Below, in pieces: positions 30,604 to 53,717 of a stretch of DNA of 64,000 nucleotides; the first letter of the stretch is position 1; each line of letters opens with the position of its first letter. A program made the position numbers and the translations under genes. The notes under the pieces were generated by a model. It was not told the DNA's origin and ran no database searches. It saw only the letters and a list, made by a program, of their open reading frames with translations. This stretch comes from a virus. The stretch lies in IMG/VR virus record IMGVR_UViG_3300042445_001340, positions 4,668 to 68,667 of that record; one strand, written 5' to 3'.

Positions 30604-32848
30604 AGAATTTTTCCCAGTCTCCAAAACTGTAGTCGTCGCCTACATCTTGGTCAACGCCAATTGGTGTGTTGACTATCTCACAGCCCCATTCATGTTGAGT
30701 ATTACGCTTTAGGATCTCGCAGTATTGCACCACATCTTCGTCCTTTACCAGCGCAACAATCGAGTCATGAACAAGCATAAAGATTTTAGCGTCTAGATTC
30801 TTTGCAGAAATTTCGGTTGCTGTTCGCATAGCTCCAAGTAAGTTAACATCACTGGCAAGACTTTGCACTTCTGCGTTGATTCCACTACGGACTTCGTGAG
30901 CTGCAATGCCTTTATCTGCGCTAAACACATTAGGTAATCTGCGTTTCCGACCAAAGAATGAGTATGTGTAACCATTTTGTTGAATAAAGTTTTTACGATC
31001 TTCAAGCCAACGCTTTAGCTTTGAAAATTTAGTAAAGTATTGTTTAATATCATCACGAGCTTGCTCAACTGGATAGCTTTCGCCTGTGGCTTTTGATACT
31101 GTCTGAGAAACTTTATTAGCACCAGAACCGTACAAAATACCAAATGAAATAGCTTTAGCACTTTGACGCATTGAGCCATATAACCGTTTAACATCACCAA
31201 CTGCACAAGGCAGTGAAAACACCATTTTAGCAATTGTTGAGTGAAAGTCGCCGCCGCTGGAAAATACTTCTTGCAGGTTTTTGTCGCCACTCAACACAGC
31301 CGCATAATACATTTCGGCTGTGGTCAAATCTTGCGATACAATCTTATATCCTGTTGGAGCTTTGATACAACCTTTGATAATAGGATTGTCCCGAGGAATT
31401 TGCTGAGCATTGAACTTGCCACTACTACTAAGACGACCGCTAGTAGTAAAGATAAGATTAAAATTCGTACGAATACGACCATCGCGGTCAATTTCTGGTA
31501 AAATCTTTGAAATATATGTGTTTTGAATCTTGCCAAGCTGACGTACCTTTAAAATCGCCGCTGGCAATGCATGCTCTTCGGACAACTCACCGAGCACTTC
31601 TGCATCAGTGGAGACGGCTCCGGTAGCAGTCTTTTTACCAGTAGGATTGAGTCCCAAATAATCAAATAACACAACACGAAGCTGCATAACTGAGTTAGGG
31701 TTAAATATTTTTCCGGAATCTTTTTCATATTGTTTTACTGCATCAAAGCTGTAAACAACTTTTTTGGCTTCTTCAATTTCATAGTCCAAGTACTTTTCCG
31801 CAGCAGCCATACGTGTAGTACTCATAGGAATACCAACTTCTTCCATGTCCATTAAGAATAGCGTACCAGGAATTAAGATTTCTTCATATACCTTGAGCAA
31901 TTTAGCATTTTGCTGAACAATAGGCCAGAACTTGTGGAAAAGGTCGTATGTAACGGCCGTATCAATAGAAGCGTAACGACTAATAGTATTAAACGGAATA
32001 AGGTCATAAGTAAAATCATCTTGTAACAAGCCGTTAGCAGCACAGTATGCTTTCTTGAAATCATCTAGCTCTGAATCGTAATCACCATAGTTGGTGTACT
32101 TTAGGGCCAGGGGTTTTAGTCCATGCGAATCAGTTTCATCTAGCACATAATGCATAACCATTGTATCGTGAACACGATTACGTGGAAAGTCAATATCAAG
32201 GTGATACTTAATCATCTTGAAGTCAAACTTCATATTGTGAAATACACTATAGAAATCTTTGGCAATTTTACGCAGTAGGTCTAAGCAAACGTCATCAAGA
32301 CAATCTGTTAGAATATACCTGCCATGCTGAGTTTTATAACTTAGTGACACGCCAAGCACATAACCATCTCGTGGATATAAACAAGTTGTTTCCGTGTCCC
32401 AAGCAACATAACCTTGAGCATTGTCTAGTACTTCACGTAAAAAGCGTTTAGCTTCGGCTGTGTCCTCAATTCCAGCAAAGTCGCCTTGGATATTGGGCTT
32501 TAGTTGACCATTGACGTATTTGTGAATACGATCTACTGCACGCTGAAAGTCAGGCTTACCTTCGGGTTTAAAACTTAGCATAGCTGGATTGCTGATAGCT
32601 ATGTACTTGTCATCTACTAATTGACCTGCCATGTTTGTTACACTAGTAATTTTAGCGTATTCCTTGGCAGCTTCTGAACCTACTAGTACAACAAAGTCAT
32701 ACTCACTCAAGTCAACTTCCAAGTCAACATCTTTTTTCAGGAGTTTAGTAATAGGAACTGAACTCATGTGATAATGATCGAATTCAAACTCAAAATAGTC
32801 CGAATACCGTGTACGGTTAGGTGCTTTATCAATAACTGCAATTTTCAT
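30560..32848 (-). CDS. pol: Family A DNA polymerase with 3'-5' exonuclease
   Basis: DTET, HNMKFD, YASID, TTSGRLSS, QDLTTAE, RQSAKAISFGILYG, VHDS. Confidence 0.95.
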   Translation of the reverse strand: MKIAVIDKAPNRTRYSDYFEFEFDHYHMSSVPITKLLKKDVDLEVDLSEYDFVVLVGSEAAKEYAKITSVTNMAGQLVDDKYIAISNPAMLSFKPEGKPDFQRAVDRIHKYVNGQLKPNIQGDFAGIEDTAEAKRFLREVLDNAQGYVAWDTETTCLYPRDGYVLGVSLSYKTQHGRYILTDCLDDVCLDLLRKIAKDFYSVFHNMKFDFKMIKYHLDIDFPRNRVHDTMVMHYVLDETDSHGLKPLALKYTNYGDYDSELDDFKKAYCAANGLLQDDFTYDLIPFNTISRYASIDTAVTYDLFHKFWPIVQQNAKLLKVYEEILIPGTLFLMDMEEVGIPMSTTRMAAAEKYLDYEIEEAKKVVYSFDAVKQYEKDSGKIFNPNSVMQLRVVLFDYLGLNPTGKKTATGAVSTDAEVLGELSEEHALPAAILKVRQLGKIQNTYISKILPEIDRDGRIRTNFNLIFTTSGRLSSSGKFNAQQIPRDNPIIKGCIKAPTGYKIVSQDLTTAEMYYAAVLSGDKNLQEVFSSGGDFHSTIAKMVFSLPCAVGDVKRLYGSMRQSAKAISFGILYGSGANKVSQTVSKATGESYPVEQARDDIKQYFTKFSKLKRWLEDRKNFIQQNGYTYSFFGRKRRLPNVFSADKGIAAHEVRSGINAEVQSLASDVNLLGAMRTATEISAKNLDAKIFMLVHDSIVALVKDEDVVQYCEILKRNTQHEWGCEIVNTPIGVDQDVGDDYSFGDWEKFYEFTGDNLARVQAG

Positions 32849-32870
32849 TTAATAATCCTTGTGATACTTT

Positions 32871-32899
32871 ATTATAGCGTATCTTGGCTAATATTTCAA
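32871..32899 (-). promoter_or_regulatory. sigma70-type promoter
   Basis: TTGAAA-17-TATAAT. Confidence 0.75.
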
Positions 32900-32901
32900 G
32901 T

Positions 32902-33756
32902 TCATTTATTTACATACTCGGCAATACTGCGAACGTTTTCGGCGTCTAAGTCGCCTGGGTCTGTGCCGTCTGGTAGGTCAACGATTTCAACAACGAAGCC
33001 CTCGGCTTCCAGTATTGGCTTAAGATCTTTTGCTGCCGATCTTCCCGCTTCATCCCCGTCAAAAAGCAAGTAGATGTGGGTAATGCCCTGGGCTCGGAAT
33101 GGTAGCAGTTTTTGTTTTGTGTCATTTTGAAGTGTTTTAGTACCAAAAGCGCATACTGCGTTTTTACAGCCGTTGTCGTATAGATTAAGCATATCAAACA
33201 TACCTTCTACTAGTACCATGCTTGAATAACCACTAGGCAGGTGTGCTGGGAACAGCGGCATAGTTACACCTTGTGGATAGTTAACATACCTAGGATTGCC
33301 CGCACTCATTGTGTGGCGACCAACAAACACCACTGTTTTTTGCGTAATATCACGGATTGGAAATACAATACGATCTTGTAGCTTTTCTACTTGATTGGTA
33401 TAAAAAGCACCAAAGTGTTTGAGTGTTAGTGGACTAATGCCACGAAATGTTTTAGTCCAAGGCGTGTATCCTTGTGGCAATTCTAGCTCACGTCCAAAAG
33501 ATTTTAGCACTGCTAGTTTTTCTTTTAGTGCCGCAATCTTCATGGGTACGGGGTTGGTAAAAACGCCGTAGTATTTAAAAAGATTGGTTTTAAACCCACA
33601 CGCAAAACAGTGTGCAACACCAGACACCCGGTCAACCCGAAAACTGGGGTTTGAGTCGGGATGTTCTGGGTTTAAACACTTGATTAAATAGTCACGACCG
33701 CTGGCTTGATAGCCTAGGCCATTCTTTTGAATTAGGTCTAGTACGGGATCACTCAT
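32902..33756 (-). CDS. DNA primase (Zn finger plus TOPRIM)
   Basis: CLNPEH...HCFAC, VEGMFD, FDGDEAG, DPGD. Confidence 0.92.
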   Translation of the reverse strand: MSDPVLDLIQKNGLGYQASGRDYLIKCLNPEHPDSNPSFRVDRVSGVAHCFACGFKTNLFKYYGVFTNPVPMKIAALKEKLAVLKSFGRELELPQGYTPWTKTFRGISPLTLKHFGAFYTNQVEKLQDRIVFPIRDITQKTVVFVGRHTMSAGNPRYVNYPQGVTMPLFPAHLPSGYSSMVLVEGMFDMLNLYDNGCKNAVCAFGTKTLQNDTKQKLLPFRAQGITHIYLLFDGDEAGRSAAKDLKPILEAEGFVVEIVDLPDGTDPGDLDAENVRSIAEYVNK

Positions 33757-33757
33757 A

Positions 33758-33961
33758 TTAGTCTCTTATTTTATACAAGTCTTTACAAGCTAGCCAACCA
33801 TTCTGAAAAGCCAATAATTGTGCATAAGATCCTGCTGGCATGGGTTTTCCAGGTACTATTCTATTGTAATATTTTAACCAGAAAACCTGACTAATCAGCG
33901 TTACGTCTTCTTCTCCAAGTATTTCTAGTATTTCATTTGATGTTAACATTATGCATTCCAA
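33758..33961 (-). CDS. Small hypothetical protein inserted between helicase and primase
   Basis: ORF fills the gap; AT-rich. Confidence 0.45.
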   Translation of the reverse strand: MECIMLTSNEILEILGEEDVTLISQVFWLKYYNRIVPGKPMPAGSYAQLLAFQNGWLACKDLYKIRD

Positions 33962-35337
33962 GGTAAATCAGCGCCGCTATCACTAACGGGTACTGTTTCT
34001 TCTTGGCCTTTCTTTACACGCTTAACCGCTTCTTTAGCAGCAGGCTTGTCCACACTCTGTGGCGAGATACGTAGTGTGTCCCAGTCAATTGGGCATGTAA
34101 ACGCCATTTCCTTACCGCCACGGATTTTAGTGGTTTCAAAAGAAATTGCATTGGTTTCTTTGTCATGAGCCTCCATTGTAAGGGCAATATCTGCGGCGTC
34201 CAAAATACCTTTGGCAAAACGCGCCTCTCCATCTTTGTCGATTTGATATGGACTAACCATGACAATCTCATACTTGCGCGCAAGATTTTTAAGTTTCTTA
34301 GAGACCTCAATCTGTGGTTTCCAGTCATATTGATCGTTTCCTTCTAAGACAATTTGGTTTAGATAGTCAACTACTACTAACTTTAATTTATCGCCAAACT
34401 TTGCTTTGGCTTTGCCAATATGCAGGTCGATGCTGCTTAGGGTCAAGTCACGGTCATCAACAATAATCATCTGATTATCTGCTTTTAATTGAAAATTTCG
34501 CACTAATGTTTCTTCAAACTTAAATCTATCACGATGACGCAAGAACTCGCTGATAGTTTCATCAGCGTTTTCGAACATACCGGCACGAGCTTTTACAACT
34601 GCTAAAACTTCGGTGTCAGTTAGTTTATGTTGTTTAAGATTTTGGTAATTAACATTGGCTAAAACAGCCAAGTTACGTTCCATTGTTTCTTTAGCAGTCA
34701 TTTCAATACTGAAATAAATGGAACTATTACCAGACTCATATTGATTAATAAAAAGATTGCTACAACTAATAGATTTGCCGGAGCCCCGTTTACCCCCAAT
34801 GAGAATGAGTTCTTGGCGAGCCACGCCACCAAGCACACTGTCAAAGCTATTATTAAGGCCAAGATAAACACGCTCTCGCTCCAAGTCTTCTGGGTGGCTA
34901 AACATCATCATGTCAGCCATTGTAAACACTTTTTCAGATGTGTGAGTCTTTTCTTCGATTGTTAGCGCAATTGTGGCTAAGTTTTCTTTTATTTCGTTTG
35001 TGTCGTAGAGTGGTAACTTGTCTACGAATTTATCTAATAATTTTACCGTTTCGTTTTGAGTATACTGGTCGATTAGTGCGTCCAGTGCTACTTCGGCCGA
35101 AACGTCTGGTACCTCGGTTAACCGGAGAGTCGCCAGTGTTTTAGACGCCGGACCCTCCCTTAAGGTTAGCTCAAGATCGTCAAATGACGGTATAGCGCTG
35201 TACTTCTCGTAGTACTTATTAACGACGCTATACAAGGAAGAGTACGCAGGGTCTAAGAATACTAACTTCAGCTTTGCCCAGATATCTAGGTTACGCTCAG
35301 TTAATAATTTGTTTAAGACTACTGCACTAGTATCCAA
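33949..35337 (-). CDS. DnaB-like replicative helicase (T5 D6-like)
   Basis: GGKRGSGKS, FSIEM, VVVDY, SPYQ, ARFAKGILDAAD. Confidence 0.9.
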   Translation of the reverse strand: MDTSAVVLNKLLTERNLDIWAKLKLVFLDPAYSSLYSVVNKYYEKYSAIPSFDDLELTLREGPASKTLATLRLTEVPDVSAEVALDALIDQYTQNETVKLLDKFVDKLPLYDTNEIKENLATIALTIEEKTHTSEKVFTMADMMMFSHPEDLERERVYLGLNNSFDSVLGGVARQELILIGGKRGSGKSISCSNLFINQYESGNSSIYFSIEMTAKETMERNLAVLANVNYQNLKQHKLTDTEVLAVVKARAGMFENADETISEFLRHRDRFKFEETLVRNFQLKADNQMIIVDDRDLTLSSIDLHIGKAKAKFGDKLKLVVVDYLNQIVLEGNDQYDWKPQIEVSKKLKNLARKYEIVMVSPYQIDKDGEARFAKGILDAADIALTMEAHDKETNAISFETTKIRGGKEMAFTCPIDWDTLRISPQSVDKPAAKEAVKRVKKGQEETVPVSDSGADLPWNA

Positions 35338-35338
35338 G

Positions 35339-35638
35339 TTACCCTACTTTCGATTCGTTGTCTATTAGAACTTGATCTACAATTTCAGTTACTTTGTACA
35401 TAATCTGTTCTCGTAGTTTTTTAATATCTTGTTGATATGTTGCGCCACTATCATACAGCAAACTCAATTGTTCGTGAGTAATTAACTGCTGTAAACCAAA
35501 ATATATGTGGTCGTAGGCCATAGTAGATTCTGGGGTAATATCTACTTGTGCAGCTTTTCCATAGTTGTGCACAGCCTGCTTAACGACTTCTTCCATCGTA
35601 AAAGACTCGTTGTCATGGTACGTAATAGTTACTTTCAT
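35339..35638 (-). CDS. Hypothetical protein
   Basis: 99-aa ORF; aggagg SD upstream. Confidence 0.6.
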   Translation of the reverse strand: MKVTITYHDNESFTMEEVVKQAVHNYGKAAQVDITPESTMAYDHIYFGLQQLITHEQLSLLYDSGATYQQDIKKLREQIMYKVTEIVDQVLIDNESKVG

Positions 35639-35658
35639 ACTATGAACCTCCTAAATAG

Positions 35659-35692
35659 AAAAAGCCCGAGAGCTTTATGGAACTCTCGGGCT
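35659..35692 (-). terminator. Terminator after D5
   Basis: agcccgagag...ctctcgggct followed by T5 on the minus strand. Confidence 0.75.
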
Positions 35693-35708
35693 GATAGATT
35701 AAGCCGAA

Positions 35709-36458
35709 TTAAGCAGCTGCTTTGGCTTCAGCTTTGGCTTTTTTAGCTGCGCCGTCGTAGTCAGCAACTTTGATACCACGACGAGTTAGCAATGTACGCA
35801 GACCACGTTCAGTTTTATCAACAGCTTGAGCAATTTCAGCAACAGTCATAGTGCTAATCTTGTTGCCAAGTGCTGTAACTTGGTCAACAGATTCTTTGGC
35901 ATGGGATTCTTTTTGTGCAGGAATCTTAGCAATCTGACCTTTACGTGTCAGGCTCAATGCTTTACCGCGAACTGAGGCAACAGTTTTGTTCAACTTAGCA
36001 GCAATTTCTTCGATATAGCTACCGGCATCAGCCATACGAATAAAAGTAACTTCTTCTGCTTCTGTGTAAGTACGGGCAACTTCAACTTTTTCTGCTGGCT
36101 TAACGCTGCCAGTCAACTCTAGGGCAAGTAGCTTACCTTGAATTTGTTTTGCAGTGAATTTGCCATCAGCAAAGTTTTCAGCGATTTCTTTGTAAGTTAA
36201 ATTACCTGCATTTGCTGTAACGAAATCGGCAAGATCAGCGCCTTCGTCAGCAGTAAAAGCACTGGTTTTTTCCTTAGCAAGACTTGCAACTTCACGGTCT
36301 AGTTGACGCAGCTTTGAGGCAATTGAACGAGTGGTTTTACCCAGTTGTTCAGCAGCACGCTCAACGCTATCAACGCTAACAGGGCTTTCGTTACCAACGA
36401 TGTTCATCAATTGGTCAACAGCTTCATCAGACCAGTTTTTAGTTGTTTTTTCAGTCAT
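35709..36458 (-). CDS. D5: T5 D5-like DNA-binding protein
   Basis: Repeated HTH-like units; KQIQGKLLALELT, SVRGKALSL, LTRRGI...DYDGAAK. Confidence 0.85.
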   Translation of the reverse strand: MTEKTTKNWSDEAVDQLMNIVGNESPVSVDSVERAAEQLGKTTRSIASKLRQLDREVASLAKEKTSAFTADEGADLADFVTANAGNLTYKEIAENFADGKFTAKQIQGKLLALELTGSVKPAEKVEVARTYTEAEEVTFIRMADAGSYIEEIAAKLNKTVASVRGKALSLTRKGQIAKIPAQKESHAKESVDQVTALGNKISTMTVAEIAQAVDKTERGLRTLLTRRGIKVADYDGAAKKAKAEAKAAA

Positions 36459-37218
36459 TTGTATTTTCTTTCAAGAAAGTATTTAGGTTTGTAATAATTT
36501 GGATGCCGAGTGATTCGGCTTTTTTGCGTTTTGTACTAGCTTTATCTTCTTCATCAACTAAAATATCAGTAGACTTCGTTACTGTTTCCGTAACTTTGAA
36601 GCCTGCCTCTTCTAGAGCTTTGTAGGCTTCTGATTTAGTTTTATAAGAAGATAATTTTCCAGTAATACAAACAGTCTTAGAATTATTATTACTGTTTGCC
36701 GTGGAATTTCTATTGGGCTTAAAAGAGAACGGCAAAAACTCTCTTAAGTCTGGGAAATCTGTTTCTAACCAAGTAATTAGGTTTTCGGTAACTTTATCAC
36801 CTAAACCTGCTTGTTTACACGTTTCGTATGTGATTTCGTCAATATGATTGATTACTTCACAAATTTTCTTAGAAGCGGTGTTACCTACAAGAGTAATCGA
36901 GAACGCTGCTAATACTGTGGCCAAATCCGCAGACTTGGCACGATTGATTTCATCAAGTAGTTTCTCAGCAGTTTTGGCACTGCCTAGAGCTTCTGTAACT
37001 GACTCAACGTCAAGATAAAATAACTCAGTTAAGTCTTGTAAATCAAGTTTTTCAACTGACCTAGGCCCCATGCCTTTGATACCCAGTGTCTTGCAAAAGT
37101 GTTCAACTTTTTTTGTAAGCTGAGCACTGCAAGCTGTGTTGCGACAAAACAATTGATCGTTGACCAATTCTAGTTTGTAGTTACAGCAGGGGCAGGTTGT
37201 TGGGATTTCAATTCTCAT
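36451..37218 (-). CDS. NAD-dependent DNA ligase, subunit B (Zn finger, HhH, BRCT)
   Basis: CPCC...FCRNTAC, IKGMG, VCITGKL, BRCT tail. Confidence 0.9.
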   Translation of the reverse strand: MRIEIPTTCPCCNYKLELVNDQLFCRNTACSAQLTKKVEHFCKTLGIKGMGPRSVEKLDLQDLTELFYLDVESVTEALGSAKTAEKLLDEINRAKSADLATVLAAFSITLVGNTASKKICEVINHIDEITYETCKQAGLGDKVTENLITWLETDFPDLREFLPFSFKPNRNSTANSNNNSKTVCITGKLSSYKTKSEAYKALEEAGFKVTETVTKSTDILVDEEDKASTKRKKAESLGIQIITNLNTFLKENTND

Positions 37219-37243
37219 GTTATTTTATCAATTTGTAGAGTAT

Positions 37244-37272
37244 ATTATATCTGATTGAGGACTCTGTGACAA
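37244..37272 (-). promoter_or_regulatory. sigma70-type promoter between the ligase halves
   Basis: aaatttacac-TTGTCA-17-TATAAT. Confidence 0.8.
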
Positions 37273-37289
37273 GTGTAAATTTTTACTGC

Positions 37290-38240
37290 TTAAGCATCAA
37301 CTTTATGTAAAATGCAAGGAATAATTTCTCCGGCCCTGATAACGGCAACTGTGTCACCAATTTGTAGATCTAGCATTTCAATAAAGCCTGGGTTATTGAG
37401 TGTGGCTCTGGATACAAGTGCATCACCGATGTATACAGGTTCAAGAATAGCAACAGGACTAACTTTGCCGGACTTGCCGACTTGCCACTCAACTGCAAGC
37501 AGTTGTGTTTCAACATGGGCTGCACGTTCTTTGCGGGCATATGCGCCACGAGGATGTTTTGCTGTGTAACCCAGTTCATAAAACTGCTGATTGTCGTTGA
37601 CACGAAACACTATACCATCACAAGGAAAGATTTTATCCAAATCTGGTTCATTGATTACACCAAAGCCTGCCAACTTAAGCAATCGCAGGTCTTCGTTGAA
37701 TGTATCCTGCAAGCTAGGCTGTACACCATATGCAAAGAAACTGAGTGCACGGGACTGAAACTCAGTCACATCTTTTAAGTTAAGAGCACCAGCAGCATAG
37801 TTACGGGCATTTTCAATGTTGATGGGAGCAACAATTTCGCCAGTTACTTGATACACGCCTTGAAAAGGCACTGTTTGTGGAACAATAGGATTGCCTAAAA
37901 ACTTGTCAGTTACAATTTGACCTTCTATACCATCCCCACGGGTAAGAACTCGAACAAGATTACCGTCAACATAAAGTAAGCTGAGAGCTGCCCCATCCAA
38001 CTTAATACTAGTAGCAATACCTCGAATACCTTGCAGAGGTTGGACGCCTTCATCTTCGTAGTACTTTTGTAGTGAGTACATCTGGTACAGATGACGCTCG
38101 GTTTTGGAATTTTGTTTAGCTCCCACGGTGTTGTAACCAACTGACGCAGCCAGTGCATCAAATTGTGCATCGGTGATAAATGGGCTACCTGCGTAGTATG
38201 CTTGTGAGGCTGAGTCTAAATATTGTGTTATTTTGTTCAT
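37290..38240 (-). CDS. NAD-dependent DNA ligase, subunit A (adenylation plus OB domain)
   Basis: MYSL, KLDG, TRGDG, GEI, RNYAAG, DGIVFR, RATLNN, RAGEIIP. Confidence 0.92.
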   Translation of the reverse strand: MNKITQYLDSASQAYYAGSPFITDAQFDALAASVGYNTVGAKQNSKTERHLYQMYSLQKYYEDEGVQPLQGIRGIATSIKLDGAALSLLYVDGNLVRVLTRGDGIEGQIVTDKFLGNPIVPQTVPFQGVYQVTGEIVAPINIENARNYAAGALNLKDVTEFQSRALSFFAYGVQPSLQDTFNEDLRLLKLAGFGVINEPDLDKIFPCDGIVFRVNDNQQFYELGYTAKHPRGAYARKERAAHVETQLLAVEWQVGKSGKVSPVAILEPVYIGDALVSRATLNNPGFIEMLDLQIGDTVAVIRAGEIIPCILHKVDA

Positions 38241-38247
38241 AGAATCA

Positions 38248-38276
38248 ATTATACCAGTTTAGGGTCACAAAGACAA
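38248..38276 (-). promoter_or_regulatory. sigma70-type promoter
   Basis: TTGTCT-17-TATAAT. Confidence 0.7.
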
Positions 38277-38284
38277 GTATAAAT

Positions 38285-38449
38285 TTACAAATGCCTGCCA
38301 AAAGCACAGTAAACTTGAAACCACCTAGATTGTGCATAGGCCTCTGGGTCGGCATCCCAATAACCATTGCGGCCAAAAGTCACTTGCCAATCTCTAGAGA
38401 ATTGCCAGTGGTACTTGCCAAAACGAATATTAAACCATAGGTTGCTCAT
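38285..38449 (-). CDS. Small Trp-rich protein (54 aa, not in the ORF track)
   Basis: Own translation MSNLWFNIRFGKYHWQF...; fills the gap. Confidence 0.5.
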   Translation of the reverse strand: MSNLWFNIRFGKYHWQFSRDWQVTFGRNGYWDADPEAYAQSRWFQVYCAFGRHL

Positions 38450-38621
38450 GCTTAATACCAAAATGAGTTAAAATATTATTAATACCTTCGATATGGTCAG
38501 AAACATTAATGGTTTCCCACACAACTAATTCCACCAAAGTTTCTATAAATTTCTTTTGAGCGTCCCAACTATCGCTTTCTTGGGCAGCCTGACTCCATAA
38601 CTTTTCAACTATTGGATTCAT
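38430..38621 (-). CDS. Small hypothetical protein of the ...HFG family
   Basis: MNPIVEKLW...FIETLVELVVWE...ILTHFG, similar to 61630-61845. Confidence 0.55.
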   Translation of the reverse strand: MNPIVEKLWSQAAQESDSWDAQKKFIETLVELVVWETINVSDHIEGINNILTHFGIKHEQPMV

Positions 38622-38901
38622 GCTTATCCTTAATCTTGTCGTAGTAGTGTTGGATAATATCTTCACCTTCATTTTTGGCACAAATGTCTAACATACCGTC
38701 TATGATAGCCATGATGTTTTCCATGCTGGCTGGAACGGAGACACCTTCACGACTAGGAATCCAATCGCCTTCGTAGCTTAGAAAGAACTTACGAAGTTGT
38801 ATGTAAGTAACGTCACGAAAGTCATTAACGGCTAAACGAATCTGAAAACCTTTTTCCATGTTTTCATCAATGATTTTGCTGTACTGTATATTCTCGTCCA
38901 T
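38605..38901 (-). CDS. PC4/KELP-like ssDNA-binding transcriptional coactivator
   Basis: QIRLAVNDFRDVTYIQLRKFFLSYEGDWIPSREGVSVP. Confidence 0.8.
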   Translation of the reverse strand: MDENIQYSKIIDENMEKGFQIRLAVNDFRDVTYIQLRKFFLSYEGDWIPSREGVSVPASMENIMAIIDGMLDICAKNEGEDIIQHYYDKIKDKHESNS

Positions 38902-38902
38902 A

Positions 38903-39529
38903 TTAAATCCGTACTCCTAGATCGCGAAGATGCTGTAGTGAGGCAAGCTCATAATGCTCTTGCCATGCTGACTGCAACCACTTGTCTGACAGCAAAAAGA
39001 TTCGATAAATATATCCGTAACGCTCAGTGAGTTTTTCAGACTCAACGAGTGCAGTTGAATCGTATTTAACGGAGTACACAACCTCGCCTACACTAAAACG
39101 ATCACGCTGTGCACCGTCAGGAATCATTTCAGGATTAAAGTAGGTTGAACCAGGAACACGAATTGGTACTGCATTATCTTCTAGCACACGCTTGATAAAA
39201 GTTGGTGAGCGATAAGTCATTTTACTAATAGCATCCACAGTCTCGCCAGCCAAATATTCTGAGATAATATAAACAACGTCTTCACGACTAGCAGGCTTGC
39301 CACGCAGTTCAGCACGACGTTGAGCATTACGAGCTTGAGTCTTTTTATACTCATCAATAATAGTACCAAGACGAGTAGTATTGTACGCCATGCCAAGAAT
39401 CTGGCAAGCGTCTTTTTTAGTAATAGGTTTTACACCTTCTTCGGTAGGCTCAAGCAACCTAATAACTCGGCTAATGTTAGCCGGAGTCATCAAGTCTGCT
39501 TCCAGTTCGCTTCGTTTTTTAGTTGCCAT
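38903..39529 (-). CDS. Conserved T5-like HTH DNA-binding protein
   Basis: TKKDACQILGMAYNTTRL...YLAGETVDAISKMTYRS. Confidence 0.7.
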   Translation of the reverse strand: MATKKRSELEADLMTPANISRVIRLLEPTEEGVKPITKKDACQILGMAYNTTRLGTIIDEYKKTQARNAQRRAELRGKPASREDVVYIISEYLAGETVDAISKMTYRSPTFIKRVLEDNAVPIRVPGSTYFNPEMIPDGAQRDRFSVGEVVYSVKYDSTALVESEKLTERYGYIYRIFLLSDKWLQSAWQEHYELASLQHLRDLGVRI

Positions 39530-39572
39530 GATTGTTCCTTAAAAGACAAAGGCGGCATAAAGCCGCCTTGGA

Positions 39573-39944
39573 TTAACCTTTGATAACGCCCAAGAAGTAC
39601 ACTGCGGCTTTGCCAGTCAACTTAGACAAAATGTCTGCATCAACCGTTTTACCGGCGGCTTCAATAGCGGCGGTCAAGTCAGCAATAGCCGACTCTTTGC
39701 TTACACGAGCTGGTTTGTCACCAGTGGCCGATGTTTTGGTTTTGCTGGTAGAGCTTCCAGCAGCTGGGTCTTTTTTCACGTATACACCGGCTTGCACTAG
39801 TACCATACGCACGCCGTTAGGCGACATTTCGATTTCTTCGGCAATGTCTTTGATAATTTCTGTTGAATTTTCAGGAGTTGGGCCAGCACCTTCGTACTTG
39901 GCAATAACTTCGGATTTCAACTCATCTGTCCATGTAGCAGCCAT
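39573..39944 (-). CDS. D3: T5 D3-like DNA-binding protein
   Basis: WTDE...PTPENSTEI...SPNGVRMVLVQAGVYVKK...KLTGKAAVYF. Confidence 0.8.
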   Translation of the reverse strand: MAATWTDELKSEVIAKYEGAGPTPENSTEIIKDIAEEIEMSPNGVRMVLVQAGVYVKKDPAAGSSTSKTKTSATGDKPARVSKESAIADLTAAIEAAGKTVDADILSKLTGKAAVYFLGVIKG

Positions 39945-39964
39945 TTGTTTTCTTTCAGTTTTGT

Positions 39965-40258
39965 TTAAATGTGGTTTGTAGTTACGTCGGTCATTTTTTC
40001 TGGAAGGAATCGACGATAGTTATGCTTTAAGTCATACTTTTGCATAATACTTATTTTAGCATTATACTGCTCAGCAAGCAAGTCACGATATTCGCTGGTA
40101 AATTCAGCGAACAGGGCTTCGGGCATATCAGAAATGTCAATGCCTTCAAAGTGCTTGCAGGGTTGCAGGACTTCGATTACTGCACGATCACTGGTTGTGC
40201 CGTCTGCTTTTGTGTATTTGAATTCTACGAGTTTCATGTTGTTTGCCTTTTGTATCAA
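39965..40258 (-). CDS. Hypothetical protein
   Basis: FKYTKADGTTSDR...YRRF. Confidence 0.6.
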   Translation of the reverse strand: MIQKANNMKLVEFKYTKADGTTSDRAVIEVLQPCKHFEGIDISDMPEALFAEFTSEYRDLLAEQYNAKISIMQKYDLKHNYRRFLPEKMTDVTTNHI

Positions 40259-40269
40259 TCTAAGTATAT

Positions 40270-40298
40270 ATTATACAGTGATTGACTGTGTGACTCAA
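40270..40298 (-). promoter_or_regulatory. sigma70-type promoter
   Basis: TTGAGT-17-TATAAT. Confidence 0.65.
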
Positions 40299-40309
40299 GT
40301 TAGAAATTT

Positions 40310-40570
40310 TTAATCTTGTTTAAAAATCTCGCGCCGCAAGCCTGTTTGAAAACGCTGGGCTATTGTTTCGCTGAGCATTGGAGGTACGAGCAATGGGGCA
40401 ACTATAGCACTTAGTAAAATATACACTACTGTACTAATTATACGGTATTCTGTAAAACTGTTTTGTATGCCCTCAGCTTTAGCCTGCTGCACCATAGGCC
40501 AAAACCATAAATAACAAGCAGCAATTGCAGTACTAAATGCAAATAGCAAATAGTAACCAATCAATTCCAT
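40310..40570 (-). CDS. Two-TM membrane protein
   Basis: Two hydrophobic segments. Confidence 0.6.
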   Translation of the reverse strand: MELIGYYLLFAFSTAIAACYLWFWPMVQQAKAEGIQNSFTEYRIISTVVYILLSAIVAPLLVPPMLSETIAQRFQTGLRREIFKQD

Positions 40571-40947
40571 GTATTAGCCTTACGCATAAAAGCGCGAGCA
40601 CCAAGTGAGAAATCAACCTTGCCTTGTGGCAGGTTTACAAACTGTTTAGTGTTGGGTGTTGCCAGTGCTGCTTGCTGCACCTTAGGGTTGTTGGAAAACA
40701 ATTCTTTTGGAGCACTACCACGAAAATACTTAAATAGTTTAGCCAAGCGAATTGCGCTATGAGACCACTGTGGTGTCACAGGCTTGGTACGAACCTGACC
40801 AGTTTCTAGTACAGCATTTTGCAGTTGCACATTATTTGGCTGAGACTTCAGCAAACGTGTAAGCCTGCGCTTGCGATTGGCTTGGGTGCGACTTACTGCG
40901 GTTGAGGGTCCGGTGCTTGCTGGGGCTTTTTGAGGTTTTGTTGCCAT
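40561..40947 (-). CDS. Basic hypothetical protein
   Basis: NRKRRLTRLLKSQPNN motif. Confidence 0.6.
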   Translation of the reverse strand: MATKPQKAPASTGPSTAVSRTQANRKRRLTRLLKSQPNNVQLQNAVLETGQVRTKPVTPQWSHSAIRLAKLFKYFRGSAPKELFSNNPKVQQAALATPNTKQFVNLPQGKVDFSLGARAFMRKANTWN

Positions 40948-40948
40948 T

Positions 40949-41179
40949 TTATAACTTTCGTATTTTGAATTGAGTTTTATTAGTGTCTATTGGCACGAGT
41001 TCTACTGCACGAGCTTGGGCTAAAAACTCCAATGTTTTAAAGGCTTCGGCATATGTTTGGATCATTTCGCCCTGCTCGTTTACTATGTGGGTTACGGTTT
41101 CTAGTAATTGAAGCGTAACCGGCTGAAACTCACCAGTAAGCAGCTCGCTGAACAGCTTGTTGAACGGATTCTGGGTCAT
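40949..41179 (-). CDS. Hypothetical protein
   Basis: Packed ORF. Confidence 0.5.
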   Translation of the reverse strand: MTQNPFNKLFSELLTGEFQPVTLQLLETVTHIVNEQGEMIQTYAEAFKTLEFLAQARAVELVPIDTNKTQFKIRKL

Positions 41180-41495
41180 GTCGGACTTCGTCATTTTCAA
41201 CATAGGCTTCTGAGGTACTTTCTACATAAGATTCAAGTTGTCGGGCAAGAGTAAGTTTGTCGCTGATTCTGACTACTTCTAATAGTGCTGCGATTAGGTC
41301 TGGAATATTGTCTACTGCGATTGGCATATAACGGCCACAACTGTCTGAGATGGCTGCTTCGTCAGTACCACCTGCGTTAGTACCAAACTCTACAAAGTTG
41401 TAGTAAAAGTTACCTTGAGCATCAGGGCCAAAAAGGTTATCATCACCAAATAAATCGACGTCATTGGGTGGAACTTGAGCAAAATTAATTTTCAT
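41130..41495 (-). CDS. Hypothetical protein
   Basis: 121-aa ORF downstream of the promoter at 41532-41560. Confidence 0.6.
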   Translation of the reverse strand: MKINFAQVPPNDVDLFGDDNLFGPDAQGNFYYNFVEFGTNAGGTDEAAISDSCGRYMPIAVDNIPDLIAALLEVVRISDKLTLARQLESYVESTSEAYVENDEVRHDPESVQQAVQRAAYW

Positions 41496-41531
41496 GTGTT
41501 TTAAATGGTTGGGTTGCGTTGTTAAAGAATA

Positions 41532-41560
41532 ATTATACTAAAAAGTAATCAAAGTTTCAA
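41532..41560 (-). promoter_or_regulatory. sigma70-type promoter
   Basis: TTGAAA-17-TATAAT. Confidence 0.75.
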
Positions 41561-41578
41561 GTGAATATTTATGCAAAC

Positions 41579-41607
41579 AAAAAAGCCCCTCCAAAACTGG
41601 AAGGGCT
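41579..41607 (-). terminator. Terminator after the tRNA(CAT)
   Basis: agcccttcca...tggaggggct followed by T6 on the minus strand. Confidence 0.7.
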
Positions 41608-41614
41608 CTATGCA

Positions 41615-41689
41615 TGGTGCGCTGACTAGGAATTGAACCTAGACTCAATGAATTATGAGTTCACTGCTTTACCATTAAGCTATCAGCGC
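41615..41689 (-). tRNA. tRNA with CAT anticodon (Ile2 or elongator Met)
   Basis: GCGCTGA/TCAGCGC-ACCA; loop CTCATAA. Confidence 0.9.
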
Positions 41690-42213
41690 ACTTTAACTTG
41701 TTTCTTTACTTCTTCTAGTGAAATAGGAGTATAGTTGATACGTTCCATGCTAACATTAAAATAACGCGAGTCTGGGATTTGTGCTAGCGGTAGTTTTACC
41801 ACATTGTGGTGTAAGTGCCCATGCACGTTTAGTCCCCAGCGAGCTAAGCTTTCTGGGTGAATTGGAATATGTGTTAAGATCATTCCATCAAACTGATGAC
41901 TTCCACGAATGTCTTTGAAGTGGTCAATGTACCTGCCAGGCTTGGCTAGATCATGATTGCCCTTAATCAAAACTTTTTCGCCATTCATGCGACGTAGGAT
42001 TTCTAGTGCTTCTATGGTAGTTTGCATACTAACATCACCTAAAAAGTACACCTTGTCATGTGGCTTAACCACTGAGTTATGGCAGTTGACCATATGCTCG
42101 TTCATGTGATGTACGTCATCAAACTCACGCAGCGGAGTTCCGTTACCTTGCTTGAATGTGAGTATGTTGGCATGGTGAAAGTGGTGGTCACTTGCAAAAA
42201 AGATATTAGCCAT
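41683..42213 (-). CDS. Calcineurin-like metallophosphoesterase
   Basis: SDHHFHH, LGD, KGNHD, THIP, HGHLH, NVSME. Confidence 0.9.
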   Translation of the reverse strand: MANIFFASDHHFHHANILTFKQGNGTPLREFDDVHHMNEHMVNCHNSVVKPHDKVYFLGDVSMQTTIEALEILRRMNGEKVLIKGNHDLAKPGRYIDHFKDIRGSHQFDGMILTHIPIHPESLARWGLNVHGHLHHNVVKLPLAQIPDSRYFNVSMERINYTPISLEEVKKQVKVR

Positions 42214-46737: not shown

Positions 46738-46850
46738 ACTATAGTTTAACATACTACCCATGCTGGGTGCTCCCAGTTACCCGCGGAAGGTGTGCTGCAG
46801 TCTACTCCGCATATATGCATTAAGTGGCAAGTAATATGCTAAACTATAGT
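46738..46850 (-). ncRNA. Stem-enclosed RNA cassette B between tmRNA and clpP
   Basis: 20-bp closing stem (2 GU); internal helices GCGGAG/UUCCGC and CUGGG/CCCAG. Confidence 0.65.
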
Positions 46851-47194
46851 GACAGCTTATTCTGTTACGAGGAAAGCTGTCGAAACCCTAAGCAGCCCTA
46901 TTTAGGCTGCCAATGCGTACGTGTTATCGTTTGCAGTTATTTTTGTTTTGTGTCTGCGGCCAGGAATCCCTAACCCTACGGCTTCTACATTGCCGAGTTG
47001 TCCGCTTTGCTACTCTTAGCCCGGTCGATCCTGTGTCAGGCCCATCAAAAGCACTCCTAGTGTTCCTAGGTCGGGAATTCCAGCCATCAGCCGTATGAGA
47101 AACAGCTTACTTGCTACCCTACTCAATGCTTATGGTGGACCTGGCGGGCACTGCCCCCGCGTGTCAGACTCTTTTGGTTTCGCTTCATACAACC
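46851..47194 (-). ncRNA. ssrA: Circularly permuted two-piece tmRNA: acceptor piece ~47194-47133, intervening segment 47132-47044, coding piece 47043-~46851; tag ANDNTYALAA
   Basis: GGGCCUG pairs with CAGGUCC-ACCA with G3:U70; T-arm GCGGG-GGCAGUG-CCCGC; D-loop-like ACACAGGAUCGAC; tag codons 46934-46902 after AAAAUAACU. Confidence 0.92.
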
Positions 47195-47289
47195 ATATCT
47201 ATAACCACTAGGGACTCGAACCCCGTATTCTGGTGGCCTACCAGTAGTTCCAAACTGCCAGAGCGACTGGTAGTGGTTATAGATATGGT
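47192..47289 (-). ncRNA. Stem-enclosed RNA cassette D with a T-loop
   Basis: Perfect 19-bp inverted repeat 47192-47210/47271-47289; internal GGGG-UUCGAGU-CCC. Confidence 0.7.
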
Positions 47290-48873: not shown

Positions 48874-48878
48874 ATAGC

Positions 48879-49223
48879 TTACATTTTACCGTTTAATTTA
48901 TTTATATTACAGGCTTCTTCGTAACCATACTTAGCTACTACATTCTCAAAAGGACTCTTATGAGTACCATTAAGCCTAGCATCTGCAACATTCTCTTTTC
49001 TAGTACCCCAATACAGATGTTGTGGATTAGAGCACTCACCATTGTTACAAGCATGGCATAAGTCTATACCAATACCTTTCGGAAAATTAGTATTCAAGTA
49101 TTGCGCTAATACGCCTCTATGATTAGTACTATTACCACCACGTTCTATACATGGTTGGCTTAAGTCTAAATGAGAAGTTCTAATATCTCTGGATTCTTTA
49201 ATCCATTCAGTTATTTGAATCAT
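48879..49223 (-). CDS. Free-standing HNH (His-Cys) endonuclease, likely homing
   Basis: LCHACNNGECSNPQHLYWGTRKENVAD; start reassigned to MIQITEW. Confidence 0.8.
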   Translation of the reverse strand: MIQITEWIKESRDIRTSHLDLSQPCIERGGNSTNHRGVLAQYLNTNFPKGIGIDLCHACNNGECSNPQHLYWGTRKENVADARLNGTHKSPFENVVAKYGYEEACNINKLNGKM

Positions 49224-49228
49224 AAATT

Positions 49229-49315
49229 TGGTGGAAACAGTTTGACTCGAACAAACAAGGCCAGTGGCAAAAGATTTACAGTCTTCCCCCGATACCATTA
49301 CGGGACTATGTTTCC
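49229..49315 (-). tRNA. tRNA-Tyr(GTA)
   Basis: Loop CTGTAAA, long variable arm. Confidence 0.88.
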
Positions 49316-49367
49316 ACTTTAAAAGATAATTATACCCGATTAAGCAATCTTGGGCAAATCTAAATTT

Positions 49368-51943: not shown

Positions 51944-52125
51944 ATTGTTGTATACTTTGTTTACTACCCACCCCGCTAAGGGTGTGTTTCTGGCTTAGCG
52001 TATTCATGACGTACACCTGTACCAGAACTCAAGCCATACCCACTAACCTTCCCGGGTGTTAGTGTTCTCAAGCTTGCAATGTTCCATAACTGAATTGGCC
52101 ACTAGCAAAGCATACAACAATATGG
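51940..52125 (-). ncRNA. Stem-enclosed RNA cassette G (~145-nt cargo)
   Basis: 20-bp stem CCAUAUUGUUGUAUGCUUUG/CAAAGUAUACAACAAUAUGG (1 GU). Confidence 0.7.
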
Positions 52126-52196
52126 TCAAGGCGGCAAGAATCGAACTTGCGCTACAACGTCCCAAACGTCGGGTGATGCCATTTCACTACGCCCTG
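52123..52196 (-). tRNA. tRNA-Pro(TGG)
   Basis: C1, loop TTTGGGA. Confidence 0.9.
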
Positions 52197-52300
52197 ATAC
52201 ACACTTTTTAGAATAGTGCGAAATCTCCCCGATATAGCGATCTGTCGGTGGAAGCAAGATCAGAATAATAATTATACAGCAAAAGGGCTGCACAATCAAG

Positions 52301-52441
52301 TCAATATTTTACAAGGGCTAAAACAGCGCTGCGATGTTCTCGGCCTAATTCATCACGAACTGCACGAATTGCTGAATCGTAGTCAGTGCCGTCACAGTCC
52401 CACACAGCTAATTTTCCGTTGATTTTGGTAAAAACTCGCAT
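52301..52441 (-). CDS. 46-aa hypothetical protein (not in the ORF track)
   Basis: MRVFTKINGKLAVWD...; lies between two promoters. Confidence 0.5.
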   Translation of the reverse strand: MRVFTKINGKLAVWDCDGTDYDSAIRAVRDELGREHRSAVLALVKY

Positions 52442-52512
52442 GGTAGTGTTTCTTTCAAAGAGTAGTAATTATACTTGAAAAAGCATATAACCACAAGTGT
52501 AAATTTTTAAAC

Positions 52513-52583
52513 CCATAATTTAACACACTAAACTACTTAGGCTGCAATAGGAGCCATTGTTCGCCTAATGTGTTAAATTATGG
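52513..52583 (-). ncRNA. Stem-enclosed RNA cassette H
   Basis: CCAUAAUUUAACACAUUAG/UUAGUGUGUUAAAUUAUGG. Confidence 0.6.
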
Positions 52584-52754
52584 TGGATCGGGCAGGACTC
52601 GAACCTGCTACAATAAATTATACAACACACGACCATGTATTCGAACTCAGGCTGAATTGTAGCTGATTACGCCGTTGCAGGGCCAGGGTCAACTATCTAC
52701 ATTCAAAAGTGTTGTATGCCGGCTTTGTGCTTTAACCATATAAGCTACCGATCC
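52581..52754 (-). ncRNA. 174-nt tRNA-scaffolded RNA with ~100 extra nt replacing the anticodon arm
   Basis: GGAUCGG/CCGAUCC-ACCA, D arm GCUU/AAGC, T arm GCAGG-UUCGAGU-CCUGC; insert closed by AUACAACAC/GUGUUGUAU. Confidence 0.8.
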
Positions 52755-52839
52755 ATATAAAAACACATTTAAACCGTCCTTCAACGCTAGTCGCTATCTC
52801 CCTTACTAGAGGGCGGAACAGTATGTGCTTTTATATGGA
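52752..52839 (-). ncRNA. Stem-enclosed RNA cassette I
   Basis: 17-bp UCCAUAUAAAAGCACAU/AUGUGUUUUUAUAUGGA. Confidence 0.65.
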
Positions 52840-52859
52840 GACACTCCCTAAAGTGTCCC

Positions 52860-53025
52860 AATATAGTCTTGTGTCAGGATGACAGTCCTGCTGTATCTTA
52901 GAATATCCAAACATTCCCTCTACAGCGGCGGGACGTTTATTTTACAAAGACGGGGCTTTCACCCGTTTCGACCGAAGTGTGCTGCTAACCACTAGGGATG
53001 TGGCAACAAGCATGGCGGGACTTAT
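52860..53025 (-). ncRNA. Two tandem candidate RNAs, each starting GUCCCGCC
   Basis: Motif at 53021-53014 and 52934-52927, each followed by long hairpins. Confidence 0.5.
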
Positions 53026-53223
53026 TTAGTTAGTACTTTTATATACTTTGATTGCTTCAGCATCTAAGCTAGCATAAACACGAAACTTGTCTCGACCTAC
53101 TCGATCATAAAGATCGCCTGCCATGCACTCTAGCCGCACAAGTTTCTCGATTGAAATTAGTGTGCAGTTAACGTAGCGTGACATAAAAGCATTTATAAGA
53201 AAGTCGCGTGAATAGCCACTCAT
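53026..53223 (-). CDS. Small hypothetical protein
   Basis: YSRDFLINAFMSRY...YDRVGRDKFRVYASLDA; SD ggag. Confidence 0.6.
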   Translation of the reverse strand: MSGYSRDFLINAFMSRYVNCTLISIEKLVRLECMAGDLYDRVGRDKFRVYASLDAEAIKVYKSTN

Positions 53224-53235
53224 AAGTTCTCCAAA

Positions 53236-53580
53236 TCAGTCTATATTATAAAGCATTTCGGCTACTTCGTCAAGTGTTAAAACACGAATCTTAGTATCGC
53301 CGCGATCATCGGCCTGTTTTAGCCAATTTGCTAATACTCCGTGCATTAAGCCACTCAAGTGGTAGTTGTTGTTATGACAGCGGTATGTGCTGCCTGAATA
53401 ACCGTCGAACTCAAACCAGTCTTCAACCTTACGTGTAACAGTAATGCCACTATTAAGTTTCCAGCAATTCGACCCAGCAAAGCCGCCGTACCAGCCAGCA
53501 AATACTTTGCGGATTGGTGTTTCAAGTTCAGGTGCGTCAAATTCTAGCACAACCCAAACGTCTGGTGTATAGGTACTCAT
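53236..53580 (-). CDS. Conserved phage protein
   Basis: YTPDVWVV...KVFAGWYGGFAGSNCWKLNSGI...FDGYSGSTYRC. Confidence 0.75.
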   Translation of the reverse strand: MSTYTPDVWVVLEFDAPELETPIRKVFAGWYGGFAGSNCWKLNSGITVTRKVEDWFEFDGYSGSTYRCHNNNYHLSGLMHGVLANWLKQADDRGDTKIRVLTLDEVAEMLYNID

Positions 53581-53642
53581 ATTATTTCTCCAAATCAGAC
53601 TATATTATAATCTGATTTAAGCAAATGTTCAAGTTTGAATTT

Positions 53643-53717
53643 TGGTACGCCGTGCAGGAATCGAACCCGCATAAAGGGCTTAGAAGACCCGTGTATTATC
53701 CGTTATACGAACAGCGT
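53643..53717 (-). tRNA. tRNA-Arg(TCT)
   Basis: Loop CTTCTAA. Confidence 0.9.

Follow-up and report, generated by a model that had tools for sequence, protein, structure and literature searches.

Background

What is a gene that keeps the acceptor, D and T arms of a transfer RNA (tRNA) and carries, in place of the anticodon arm, about one hundred nucleotides (nt) of other RNA? The question is raised by a locus in the IMG/VR virus record IMGVR_UViG_3300042445_001340, of which a stretch of 64,000 nt (positions 4,668 to 68,667, hereafter the window) was analyzed; the window makes up most of the 68.7-kilobase (kb) record, whose completeness is estimated at 65%. On its minus strand, between 41.6 and 53.7 kb, it holds 23 tRNA genes and a permuted transfer-messenger RNA (tmRNA) gene, and on the same strand, at 52581-52754, lies the element considered here, a tRNA-shaped RNA gene of 174 nt. 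All parts of the element mentioned below belong to the minus strand and are read in its direction. The original prediction, made from the sequence alone, described it as a natural tRNA scaffold and proposed that it either displays a functional domain or is a tRNA with a non-canonical intron.

Stable "tRNA-like" RNAs are a long-known feature of phage tRNA clusters, RNA2 of phage T5 being an example, and the relatives of the element provide a testable handle on such molecules. From their comparison we conclude, with somewhat more belief than doubt, that the element belongs to a conserved family of non-decoding phage RNA genes. Moreover, a signature of self-association lies exactly at the anticodon position, where a six-base palindrome is replaced by other palindromes from one member to another. 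As a whole, the account that on balance we favor is that of a non-decoding, tRNA-bodied RNA whose copies are joined by kissing hexamers.

A tRNA body with the anticodon arm replaced

The Rfam tRNA model (RF00005) matches 52584-52754 with 37.7 bits (E 5.4e-06; gathering score 29), and its alignment places 106 nt as an insertion in the anticodon loop, in agreement with the estimate that about 100 extra nt replace the anticodon arm. The acceptor stem is perfect, as had been claimed: its 5' strand GGAUCGG (52748-52754) pairs with CCGAUCC (52585-52591), which is followed by the discriminator A73 and an encoded CCA, so that the whole 3' strand occupies 52581-52591. The D arm, GCUU-AUAUGGUUA-AAGC (52729-52745), and the T arm, GCAGG-UUCGAGU-CCUGC (52592-52608), were likewise found as described. 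Other tRNA hallmarks, namely U8, G18 G19 and a UUCRA T-loop, are kept and are invariant in an alignment of 20 sequences. The anticodon arm of a canonical tRNA, with its stem of 5 base pairs (bp) and its 7-nt loop containing U33 and the anticodon, is not present. The predicted 9-bp stem AUACAACAC/GUGUUGUAU does close the insert, which contains both the inner helix UGAAU-GUAG ... CUAC-A-AUUCA and the second T-loop-like block GAGUUCGAAU; taking the insert away leaves no clean anticodon stem, only CAAAG opposite UUUAU/AUUUA, again as foreseen.

ARAGORN called the 23 tRNAs and the tmRNA of the window and made no call at 52581-52754, and no open reading frame (ORF) of at least 40 amino acids overlaps the element. 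With R1, our own covariance model, the element scores 177.1 bits, compared with 42 bits for the best ordinary tRNA of the window.

A family of RNA genes in T5-like phages

Homologues were collected by exact-pattern scans and then by R1 searches of related loci. In IMG/VR, a pattern taken from the acceptor end was found in 17 stretches (8 true homologues and 9 chance matches) and one taken from the conserved loop in 83 (17 true, 66 chance); the latter include members with other, compensating acceptor stems. The scan of metagenomes returned at least 119 stretches, and at least six additional members are among the matches listed. When R1 was applied to 80 loci kept for their relatedness at orf114, a small gene upstream of the element, it recovered the element in 22, eight of the contigs being new, and gave only tRNA-sized matches in the other 58. 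Finally, a looser loop pattern gave 34 stretches, and R1 on nine new loci led to a distant member, L344 (75.7 bits). The element is thus present in at least 33 records, namely the window, 26 IMG/VR contigs and at least six metagenome contigs, all of them viral or metagenomic; they hold at least 27 distinct sequences, 158-185 nt long. These 26 further distinct homologues, together with the covariation of the helices, bear out the view that the element is more than a chance likeness to a tRNA.

Judged by their sequences, the phages carrying the element are distant T5 relatives, whose DNA polymerase shares 48% identity with its counterpart in Vibrio phage pVp-1 (Demerecviridae), and according to the run labels they come mostly from lake-water metagenomes. 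Exactly one copy is present in each of five genomes that are near-complete (94-100%; 99.9-104.2 kb; terminal repeats in two), and the window's own record also has one. Among 185,579 bacterial and archaeal species genomes, one per species, the exact pattern matched once, in coding-like sequence without tRNA features, and this match was judged to be due to chance. Against GenBank phages, blastn with a 551-nt region gave no match and blastn with the element alone gave only T-arm matches of 26-31 nt in 64 records, at a coverage of 18% or less. Searches of the full text of papers returned no published description of this RNA family.

Compensatory changes and architecture

Two alignments were used, one of 20 sequences made with MAFFT and one of 27 sequences fitted to the model, to which the hexamers discussed below were added as mirror "pairs". 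On the former, the RNAalifold prediction comprises 32 pairs, of which 18 have undergone compensatory changes; the pairs form the acceptor, D and T arms and three helices of the insert, here called P_L, P_I and P_T. The 27-sequence alignment, which is biased towards the structure to which it was fitted, has 38 pairs that are 98.4% paired, 28 of them changed on both sides; the MAFFT alignment agrees (98.9% paired, 21 pairs changed on both sides). Of 500 shuffles, none equalled the 27-sequence alignment on four of five measures; on the fifth, the number of further pair types, one did. Pairing in this alignment fell to 27-48.5% when partners were shifted by 1-3 columns. Selection on the RNA fold is indicated, at the level of sequence comparison, by the compensatory changes found in all helices, by the invariant loops and by the constant genomic position.

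The same observations bear on the possibility that the element is a decaying tRNA gene with a small functionless insertion, either mobile or junk, for instance one resembling a miniature inverted-repeat transposable element, its ends inverted over 9 bp, or one left by a homing-endonuclease event. A 9-bp inverted repeat does bound the insert, a close relative (L259) is without the element, and the flanking non-coding modules are shuffled among relatives. Nevertheless, a functionless insertion is hardly credible in view of compensatory changes in all helices and invariant loops across diverged phages; moreover, the element occurs as one copy per genome in a constant place, no nuclease gene adjoins it, and the species genomes are without a match save the chance one.

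The layout of the molecule is a tRNA upper body, a weak, A/U-rich vestige of the anticodon stem, an internal loop with the first hexamer as its 5' strand, the helix P_L and a three-way junction. Five of the seven acceptor pairs and three of the four D-arm pairs have changed on both sides, G18 and G19 being invariant, and the five pairs of the T arm are 100% paired, two of them having changed on both sides in L271 only. A73, with which aminoacylation would be compatible at most, is found in 26 of the 27 members, and the ACCA end is encoded in the same number, the exception being L344, with U73 and no CCA. The stem remnant, CAAA (52724-52727) facing the U-rich linker at 52609-52619, was drawn by eye and is irregular, without statistical support. 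Also by eye, the 3' linker (AAUUUAUUGUA, 52609-52619) was taken as the 3' side of this remnant plus the variable loop; in the near-twin L014 the linker differs (AAUUUUAGGAA). P_L, whose strands AUACAACAC (52709-52717) and GUGUUGUAU (52620-52628) pair with each other, starts near nucleotides 37/38 and is 9-10 bp long across the family, and all nine of its pairs have changed on both sides in the 27 sequences.

Two arms leave the junction. The inner arm P_I (52653-52705) consists of the helix UGAAU.../...AUUCA and a variable apical hairpin. All four pairs of its basal helix have changed on both sides (UGAA/UUCA vs CACU/AGUG), while the apex varies in sequence and length among members. The arm is capped by a YGCAA loop (UGCAA at 52675-52679, CGCAA in most members) that is conserved despite its variable flanks: the 20-sequence alignment shows no change at G77, C78 and A79 and hardly any at A80. 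The distant member L344 is without the motif. The other arm, P_T (52632-52652), has the form GCC - 15-nt loop UGAGUUCGAAUACAU - GGU; its closing pair changes from C-G to G-C in 12 of 27 members, and its loop, UGARUUCGAAUAYAU, is almost invariant. The homologues therefore answer a question posed with the original prediction, namely whether the insert varies while the scaffold is conserved: the inner hairpin varies in sequence and length, and the scaffold and two loop motifs stay. Of the idea that the scaffold displays a functional domain, the structural part stands, with tRNA body and structured insert both conserved through compensatory changes in 27 sequences.

Self-complementary hexamers

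Hexamer 1, the proposed kissing contact (GCCGGC, 52718-52723), is formed by the six bases 5' of P_L, in place of anticodon-loop positions 32-37. None of the 27 distinct sequences departs from a perfect palindrome here, and six versions occur: UCCGGA (13 sequences), GCCGGC (8), GCUAGC (2), GUCGAC (2), GUGCAC (1) and UCGCGA (1, in L344, where the palindrome extends to AUCGCGAU). The inner four bases take five forms, CCGG, CUAG, UCGA, UGCA and CGCG, all of which differ from CCGG by paired mirror changes, and each of the three mirror pairs of the hexamer has changed on both sides. When all alignment columns were scanned for partners of hexamer 1, only the mirror position gave Watson-Crick changes in helix register; the other column partners were mostly trivial G.U matches to invariant columns and were rejected. 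No second, partner copy of the hexamer was found consistently near the element, and the predicted energies of the self-duplex are -7.5 to -11.7 kcal/mol.

Since adjacent bases do not pair within a chain, the genome has one copy of the element and there is no second hexamer nearby, a symmetric duplex between two RNA copies is the simplest interpretation. The covariation of hexamer 1 therefore points to symmetric RNA-RNA kissing, in a homodimer or a larger assembly. Self-association through covarying palindromes is a new point, beyond the original prediction. There are precedents: in the OLE and GOLLD RNAs, palindromes that turn into other ones (GGCC changing to GAUC or to AGCU; GC to CG) are tied to intermolecular kissing loops seen by cryo-electron microscopy (cryo-EM) (Kretsch et al., Nature 2025, PMC12286853).

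A two-fold symmetric protein could also explain a palindrome. In this case the RNA would be monomeric and tRNA-like, and the patch would be recognized by such a protein, in the RNA or in the gene's DNA, or else would pair with a host RNA that has the same palindrome. The location of the hexamer in an internal loop, which is not a classical kissing hairpin, fits a protein site, and small conserved ORFs flank the locus (orf65 has matches in 21 of 23 family loci and orf114 in 18 of 23). However, with six palindromes the specificity of the protein would have to change repeatedly, and base-pairing accounts for the pattern without extra assumptions; orf114 is also present in phages without the element (58 of 80 loci), and searches of Pfam (orf65, orf114, orf152) and PHROG (the same and orf46) gave no family for the flanking ORFs. 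A protein site is in our judgment unlikely.

Hexamer 2, UUCGAA in the P_T loop (52640-52645), has this sequence in 24 of 27 members; in the other three (L263, L271 and L276) it reads UUGCAA, a change of the central CG to GC that keeps the palindrome. This change violates the T-loop rules and is accompanied by no compensating change in the other loop, and the sequences are thus suggestive of a second self-pairing patch. The competing idea is that the insert is a second tRNA-like elbow, in which UUCGA forms a true T-loop that docks with YGCAA, the RNA being a monomer for factors that read elbows, such as RNase P. In its favor, no T-loop sequence is commoner than UUCGAAU, the extended anticodon arm of T5 RNA2 bears the hairpin CUCG-UUCGAUU-CGAG, and GCA(A) of the other loop is invariant in 20 sequences. 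On the other hand, with UUGCAA the positions at which a T-loop requires C56 and a purine are taken by G and C, YGCAA remains uncompensated, and a second elbow says nothing about hexamer 1. Taken as the whole explanation it appears to us quite improbable; the elbow fold could, on the other side, coexist with dimerization.

Several observations weigh against the joining of copies by hexamers and have to be set beside the covariation. Hexamer 1 lies in an asymmetric internal loop and not in a hairpin loop, and its first base may close the anticodon-stem remnant (G.U or U-A, by eye), which would leave a contact of 4-5 bases. Its outer pair has just two states. Column 34 is linked with column 189, always as a wobble and without a helix, so that the outer position of hexamer 1 tracks the first P_L pair, and column 35 is linked with column 154, that is, position 2 of hexamer 1 with one P_T column, in one clade of three sequences. 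For hexamer 2, the case consists of a single type of change, shared by three related members, and UUCGAA is at the same time the commonest sequence of a T-loop. As regards the element itself, its single-sequence fold energy is ordinary (z -1.37; 18 of 200 shuffles were equally stable), and support therefore comes from the comparison between sequences and not from thermodynamics. Furthermore, L259, an IMG/VR contig whose orf114 is 76% identical, is without the element, which is therefore dispensable in at least some phages. Lastly, the only contig from an RNA library that touches the element, described below, could derive from contaminating DNA.

A possible mechanism

Considering both sides, we retain the reading in which copies kiss through the hexamers, and the following sequence of events can be proposed. 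The element, for which no separate promoter stands out, would be transcribed together with the tRNA array. Its ends would be trimmed like those of the neighboring tRNAs, which also encode CCA, so that the tRNA body would give correct ends and stability and act as a natural scaffold for processing and stabilization. Two or more mature copies would then join by symmetric kissing of hexamer 1, perhaps also of hexamer 2, in a particle that would expose several tRNA-like arms; the RNA would deliver no amino acid to codons. We can only guess at the function: the particle may bind or soak up a factor that recognizes tRNA bodies, such as a host defense enzyme that targets tRNAs or a tRNA-processing enzyme, or it may, by analogy with ROOL and GOLLD, serve as an RNA-only assembly. 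In its most extended form, the proposal would make the family a new natural class of RNA-only assemblies, in which the tRNA body scaffolds a domain and two covarying patches build a dimer or ring showing several CCA-ended arms, a miniature counterpart of ROOL and GOLLD that is possibly a multivalent trap for host enzymes attacking or handling tRNAs during T5-like infection; this extended form is tentative, and we rate it as possible rather than probable.

Several consequences would follow if dimerization is true. Phages would have devised the tRNA-scaffold trick before RNA engineers did, RNA-only quaternary structure, seen at 500-800 nt, would exist also at about 170 nt, and mutations that break and restore the palindrome could probe the role of the RNA in infection or counter-defense. 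If the RNA is instead a monomer, the family would still be new and well defined, consisting of tRNA mimics that have no anticodon and belong to a lake clade of uncultured T5-like phages.

Sequencing runs

The 21 sequencing runs listed, 20 of which hold part of the stretch, include three recorded as RNA (X15, X16 and X17) and one that is probably DNA (X10), and these four were examined. They are kept as contigs, from which starts, ends, strand and expression level are unreadable. X15 and X16 cover just 52100-52337, outside the element. X17 provides the only RNA-library contig on it: the contig spans 52582-52656, from the T arm into the insert, and comes from a relative, with five differences. 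A hole at 52678-52711 recurs in every run and has no evidential weight. As to processing, CCA is encoded in all 23 ordinary tRNAs of the window, as it is in the element.

The intron reading and other RNA classes

The second half of the original prediction, a non-canonical intron, would make the element an ordinary tRNA gene whose small intron is spliced out, leaving a tRNA able to decode. The extra RNA does sit at the anticodon loop, which is the site of tRNA introns of the bacterial group I and of the archaeal and eukaryal kind. In addition, the array of the window is without a tRNA-Tyr, and tRNA-Ser(UGA) occurs in no array seen. The relatives speak otherwise. L005, L014, L018, L049 and L056 carry both the element and an ordinary tRNA-Tyr, which rules out an intron-bearing tRNA-Tyr, and the array of L014, a near-complete relative, covers all 20 amino acids. 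Removal of the insert does not restore a 5-bp stem and 7-nt loop, and the bases at the place of the anticodon vary yet stay palindromic. No group I intron, ribozyme, riboswitch or other Rfam family was matched in the insert at E up to 10 (search of 52200-53650), and the smallest group I introns commonly described are about twice as long as its 106 nt.

Neither a twin without the insert nor a spliced form was found. A pattern of D-arm start and T arm at tRNA spacing, the one tried, detected no insert-less orthologue in IMG/VR; it gave six stretches, all of them unrelated tRNAs with other acceptor stems. No contig of the four runs joins across the insert, which as contig evidence is weak, and the one RNA-library contig on the element, from X17, retains insert sequence. 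One contig joint, from 52623 to 52715, holds 98 other letters in between and is therefore attributed to a relative with a different inner arm and not to splicing. With a complete array in a relative, palindromes instead of an anticodon, no intron model matched and no insert-less twin for the pattern tried, the intron reading is not supported, and we regard it as very improbable.

Other candidate identities were considered and set aside. The GUA of "GUAUAA" cannot be taken as a Tyr anticodon, as it belongs to a covarying stem (CUAUA/UAUAG in L010). A giant variable arm with a hidden anticodon hairpin, suggested by the Cys-like loop CUGCAAC, was discarded: most members have CCGCAA or CGCAA there, and no U33. 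A tmRNA was excluded by pair 3:70, which is A-U or G-C in all 27 members (no G3.U70), by the lack of a tag ORF and by the presence of a separate tmRNA. The YrlA / Y RNA-like model (RF02553) gave 20.1 bits, with a gathering score of 69, in a match offset to 52490-52632. The Rfam models of the ROOL, GOLLD and OLE families gave no match.

Comparison with known RNAs

Among phage RNAs, T5 RNA2 is the closest in design. It is annotated as misc_RNA rna2 (NC_005859, 32959-33083), a "tRNA-like stable RNA with unknown functions", in a T5 tRNA region (31000-42000) in which five stable RNAs are annotated, namely RNA2H (172 nt), RNAIV, RNA2, RNA3 and RNAX (719 nt). Like the element, it is located upstream of tRNA-Pro(UGG) in a T5-family phage's tRNA region and combines acceptor, D and T arms with an enlarged arm at the anticodon position that bears a UUCGAxU loop. 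Unlike the family, it is 125 nt long (vs 158-185 nt), has no three-way junction of the family form and shows no self-complementary hexamer at the anticodon position. R1 gives it 16.6-16.7 bits, below most ordinary T5 tRNAs and no more than a tRNA body gives, and for this reason we call it an analogue and not a family member; it is possibly a distant relative. The T5 stretch with RNA2 and RNAIV has no Rfam match at E up to 1. Phage T4 also has stable small RNAs with tRNA-like ends in its tRNA cluster, species 1 and species 2 (rnaC and rnaD), which differ from the element in that they are not known to have a full cloverleaf body.

The ROOL, GOLLD and OLE RNAs, large RNAs of bacteria and phages that form RNA-only homo-oligomers, offer the second comparison; ROOL and GOLLD occur in phages and prophages, often beside tRNA islands (Kretsch et al., Nature 2025, PMC12286853). 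The likeness is in the loop palindromes that covary into other palindromes, in six versions for hexamer 1 and two for hexamer 2. In contrast, those RNAs are 500-800 nt long or more, have no tRNA body, and their oligomers have been seen by cryo-EM, whereas the element has about 170 nt and a full tRNA scaffold with CCA, its oligomeric state being deduced from sequences only.

Two systems unrelated to phage tRNA arrays share single features with the element. Engineered tRNA scaffolds keep the acceptor, D and T arms and carry a cargo at the anticodon stem and loop, the product being processed and stabilized like a tRNA; the element has the same design, but is natural, conserved and covarying, and its cargo has self-pairing patches. 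The dimerization initiation site of HIV-1 is a six-base palindrome in a 9-nt hairpin loop. It resembles hexamer 1 in its length, in the flanking A residues (AAA-GCCGGC-A in the window) and in the GC-rich palindrome found in most members, one of which has GUGCAC; it differs in that the loop holding hexamer 1 is internal, with a helix of a tRNA-like RNA on either side, and there is no biological connection between the two.

Genomic neighborhood

In 14 related loci scanned for tRNAs, tRNA-Arg(TCT) is upstream of the element in 13, and the downstream neighbor is tRNA-Pro(TGG) in 11, tRNA-Leu(TAG) in two and tRNA-Tyr in one. Scans for promoters and terminators beside the element remained at chance level (3 promoter-like sites, 2.9 expected). 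Upstream lies orf114 (53236-53580, minus strand), which encodes a small protein with many invariant aromatic and glycine residues and has relatives at 357 places in IMG/VR, some on contigs longer than 300 kb. L259 is without the flanking non-coding RNA (ncRNA) modules and orf46 as well; there, tRNA-Leu(TAG) directly follows orf114, and a UvdE gene lies between tRNA-Leu(TAG) and tRNA-Pro.

Between orf65 and the element, at 52832-53025 (minus strand), is a non-coding module of about 190 nt that is a candidate for a separate ncRNA. It is matched in 14 of 23 family loci at 72-94% identity, in full length in about ten, folds moderately well (z -2.32) and has no Rfam match. A contig from a freshwater RNA library spans 52891-52942 of this module with a word depth of 827, and the module may encode an abundant phage ncRNA of its own.

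On each side the element directly adjoins a long AU-rich hairpin (52755-52838 and 52513-52583, minus strand), the 3' hairpin beginning inside the CCA. The 84-nt module on the 5' side is 93-99% identical in L005, L010, L087, L101 and L107, although the elements there are otherwise diverged, and spacer modules therefore appear to be swapped between phages. A mosaic is seen also within the RNA gene: compared with L010 (986-1159), the inner domain of the window's element (P_I, P_T) is near-identical, with two differences that together preserve a base pair, while P_L, the D loop and hexamer 1 (GCCGGC vs UCCGGA) differ, which looks like modular recombination.

The tmRNA inside the tRNA array (46811-47225, minus strand) is of the permuted, two-piece type and encodes the tag ANDNTYALAA; relatives have ANDQVYALAA or ANDEVFALAA. 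The place of the missing tRNA-Tyr in the window corresponds to 48874-49367, as the five relatives with this gene (L005, L014, L018, L049 and L056) have it between tRNA-Trp and tRNA-Leu(TAA). As tRNA-Ser(UGA) is missing from every array seen, a phage tRNA is available for all four-codon boxes except UCN. Between tRNA-Lys and tRNA-Ser(GCT), L002 has a 92-nt "tRNA-Ile(TAT)" with a long extra arm (9229-9320). The same gene occupies the same place in L005, L018, L042, L056, L059, L087, L263, L271 and L276 and is not in the window, and in L070 this place is occupied by a tRNA of 100 nt for which the anticodon call has four bases.

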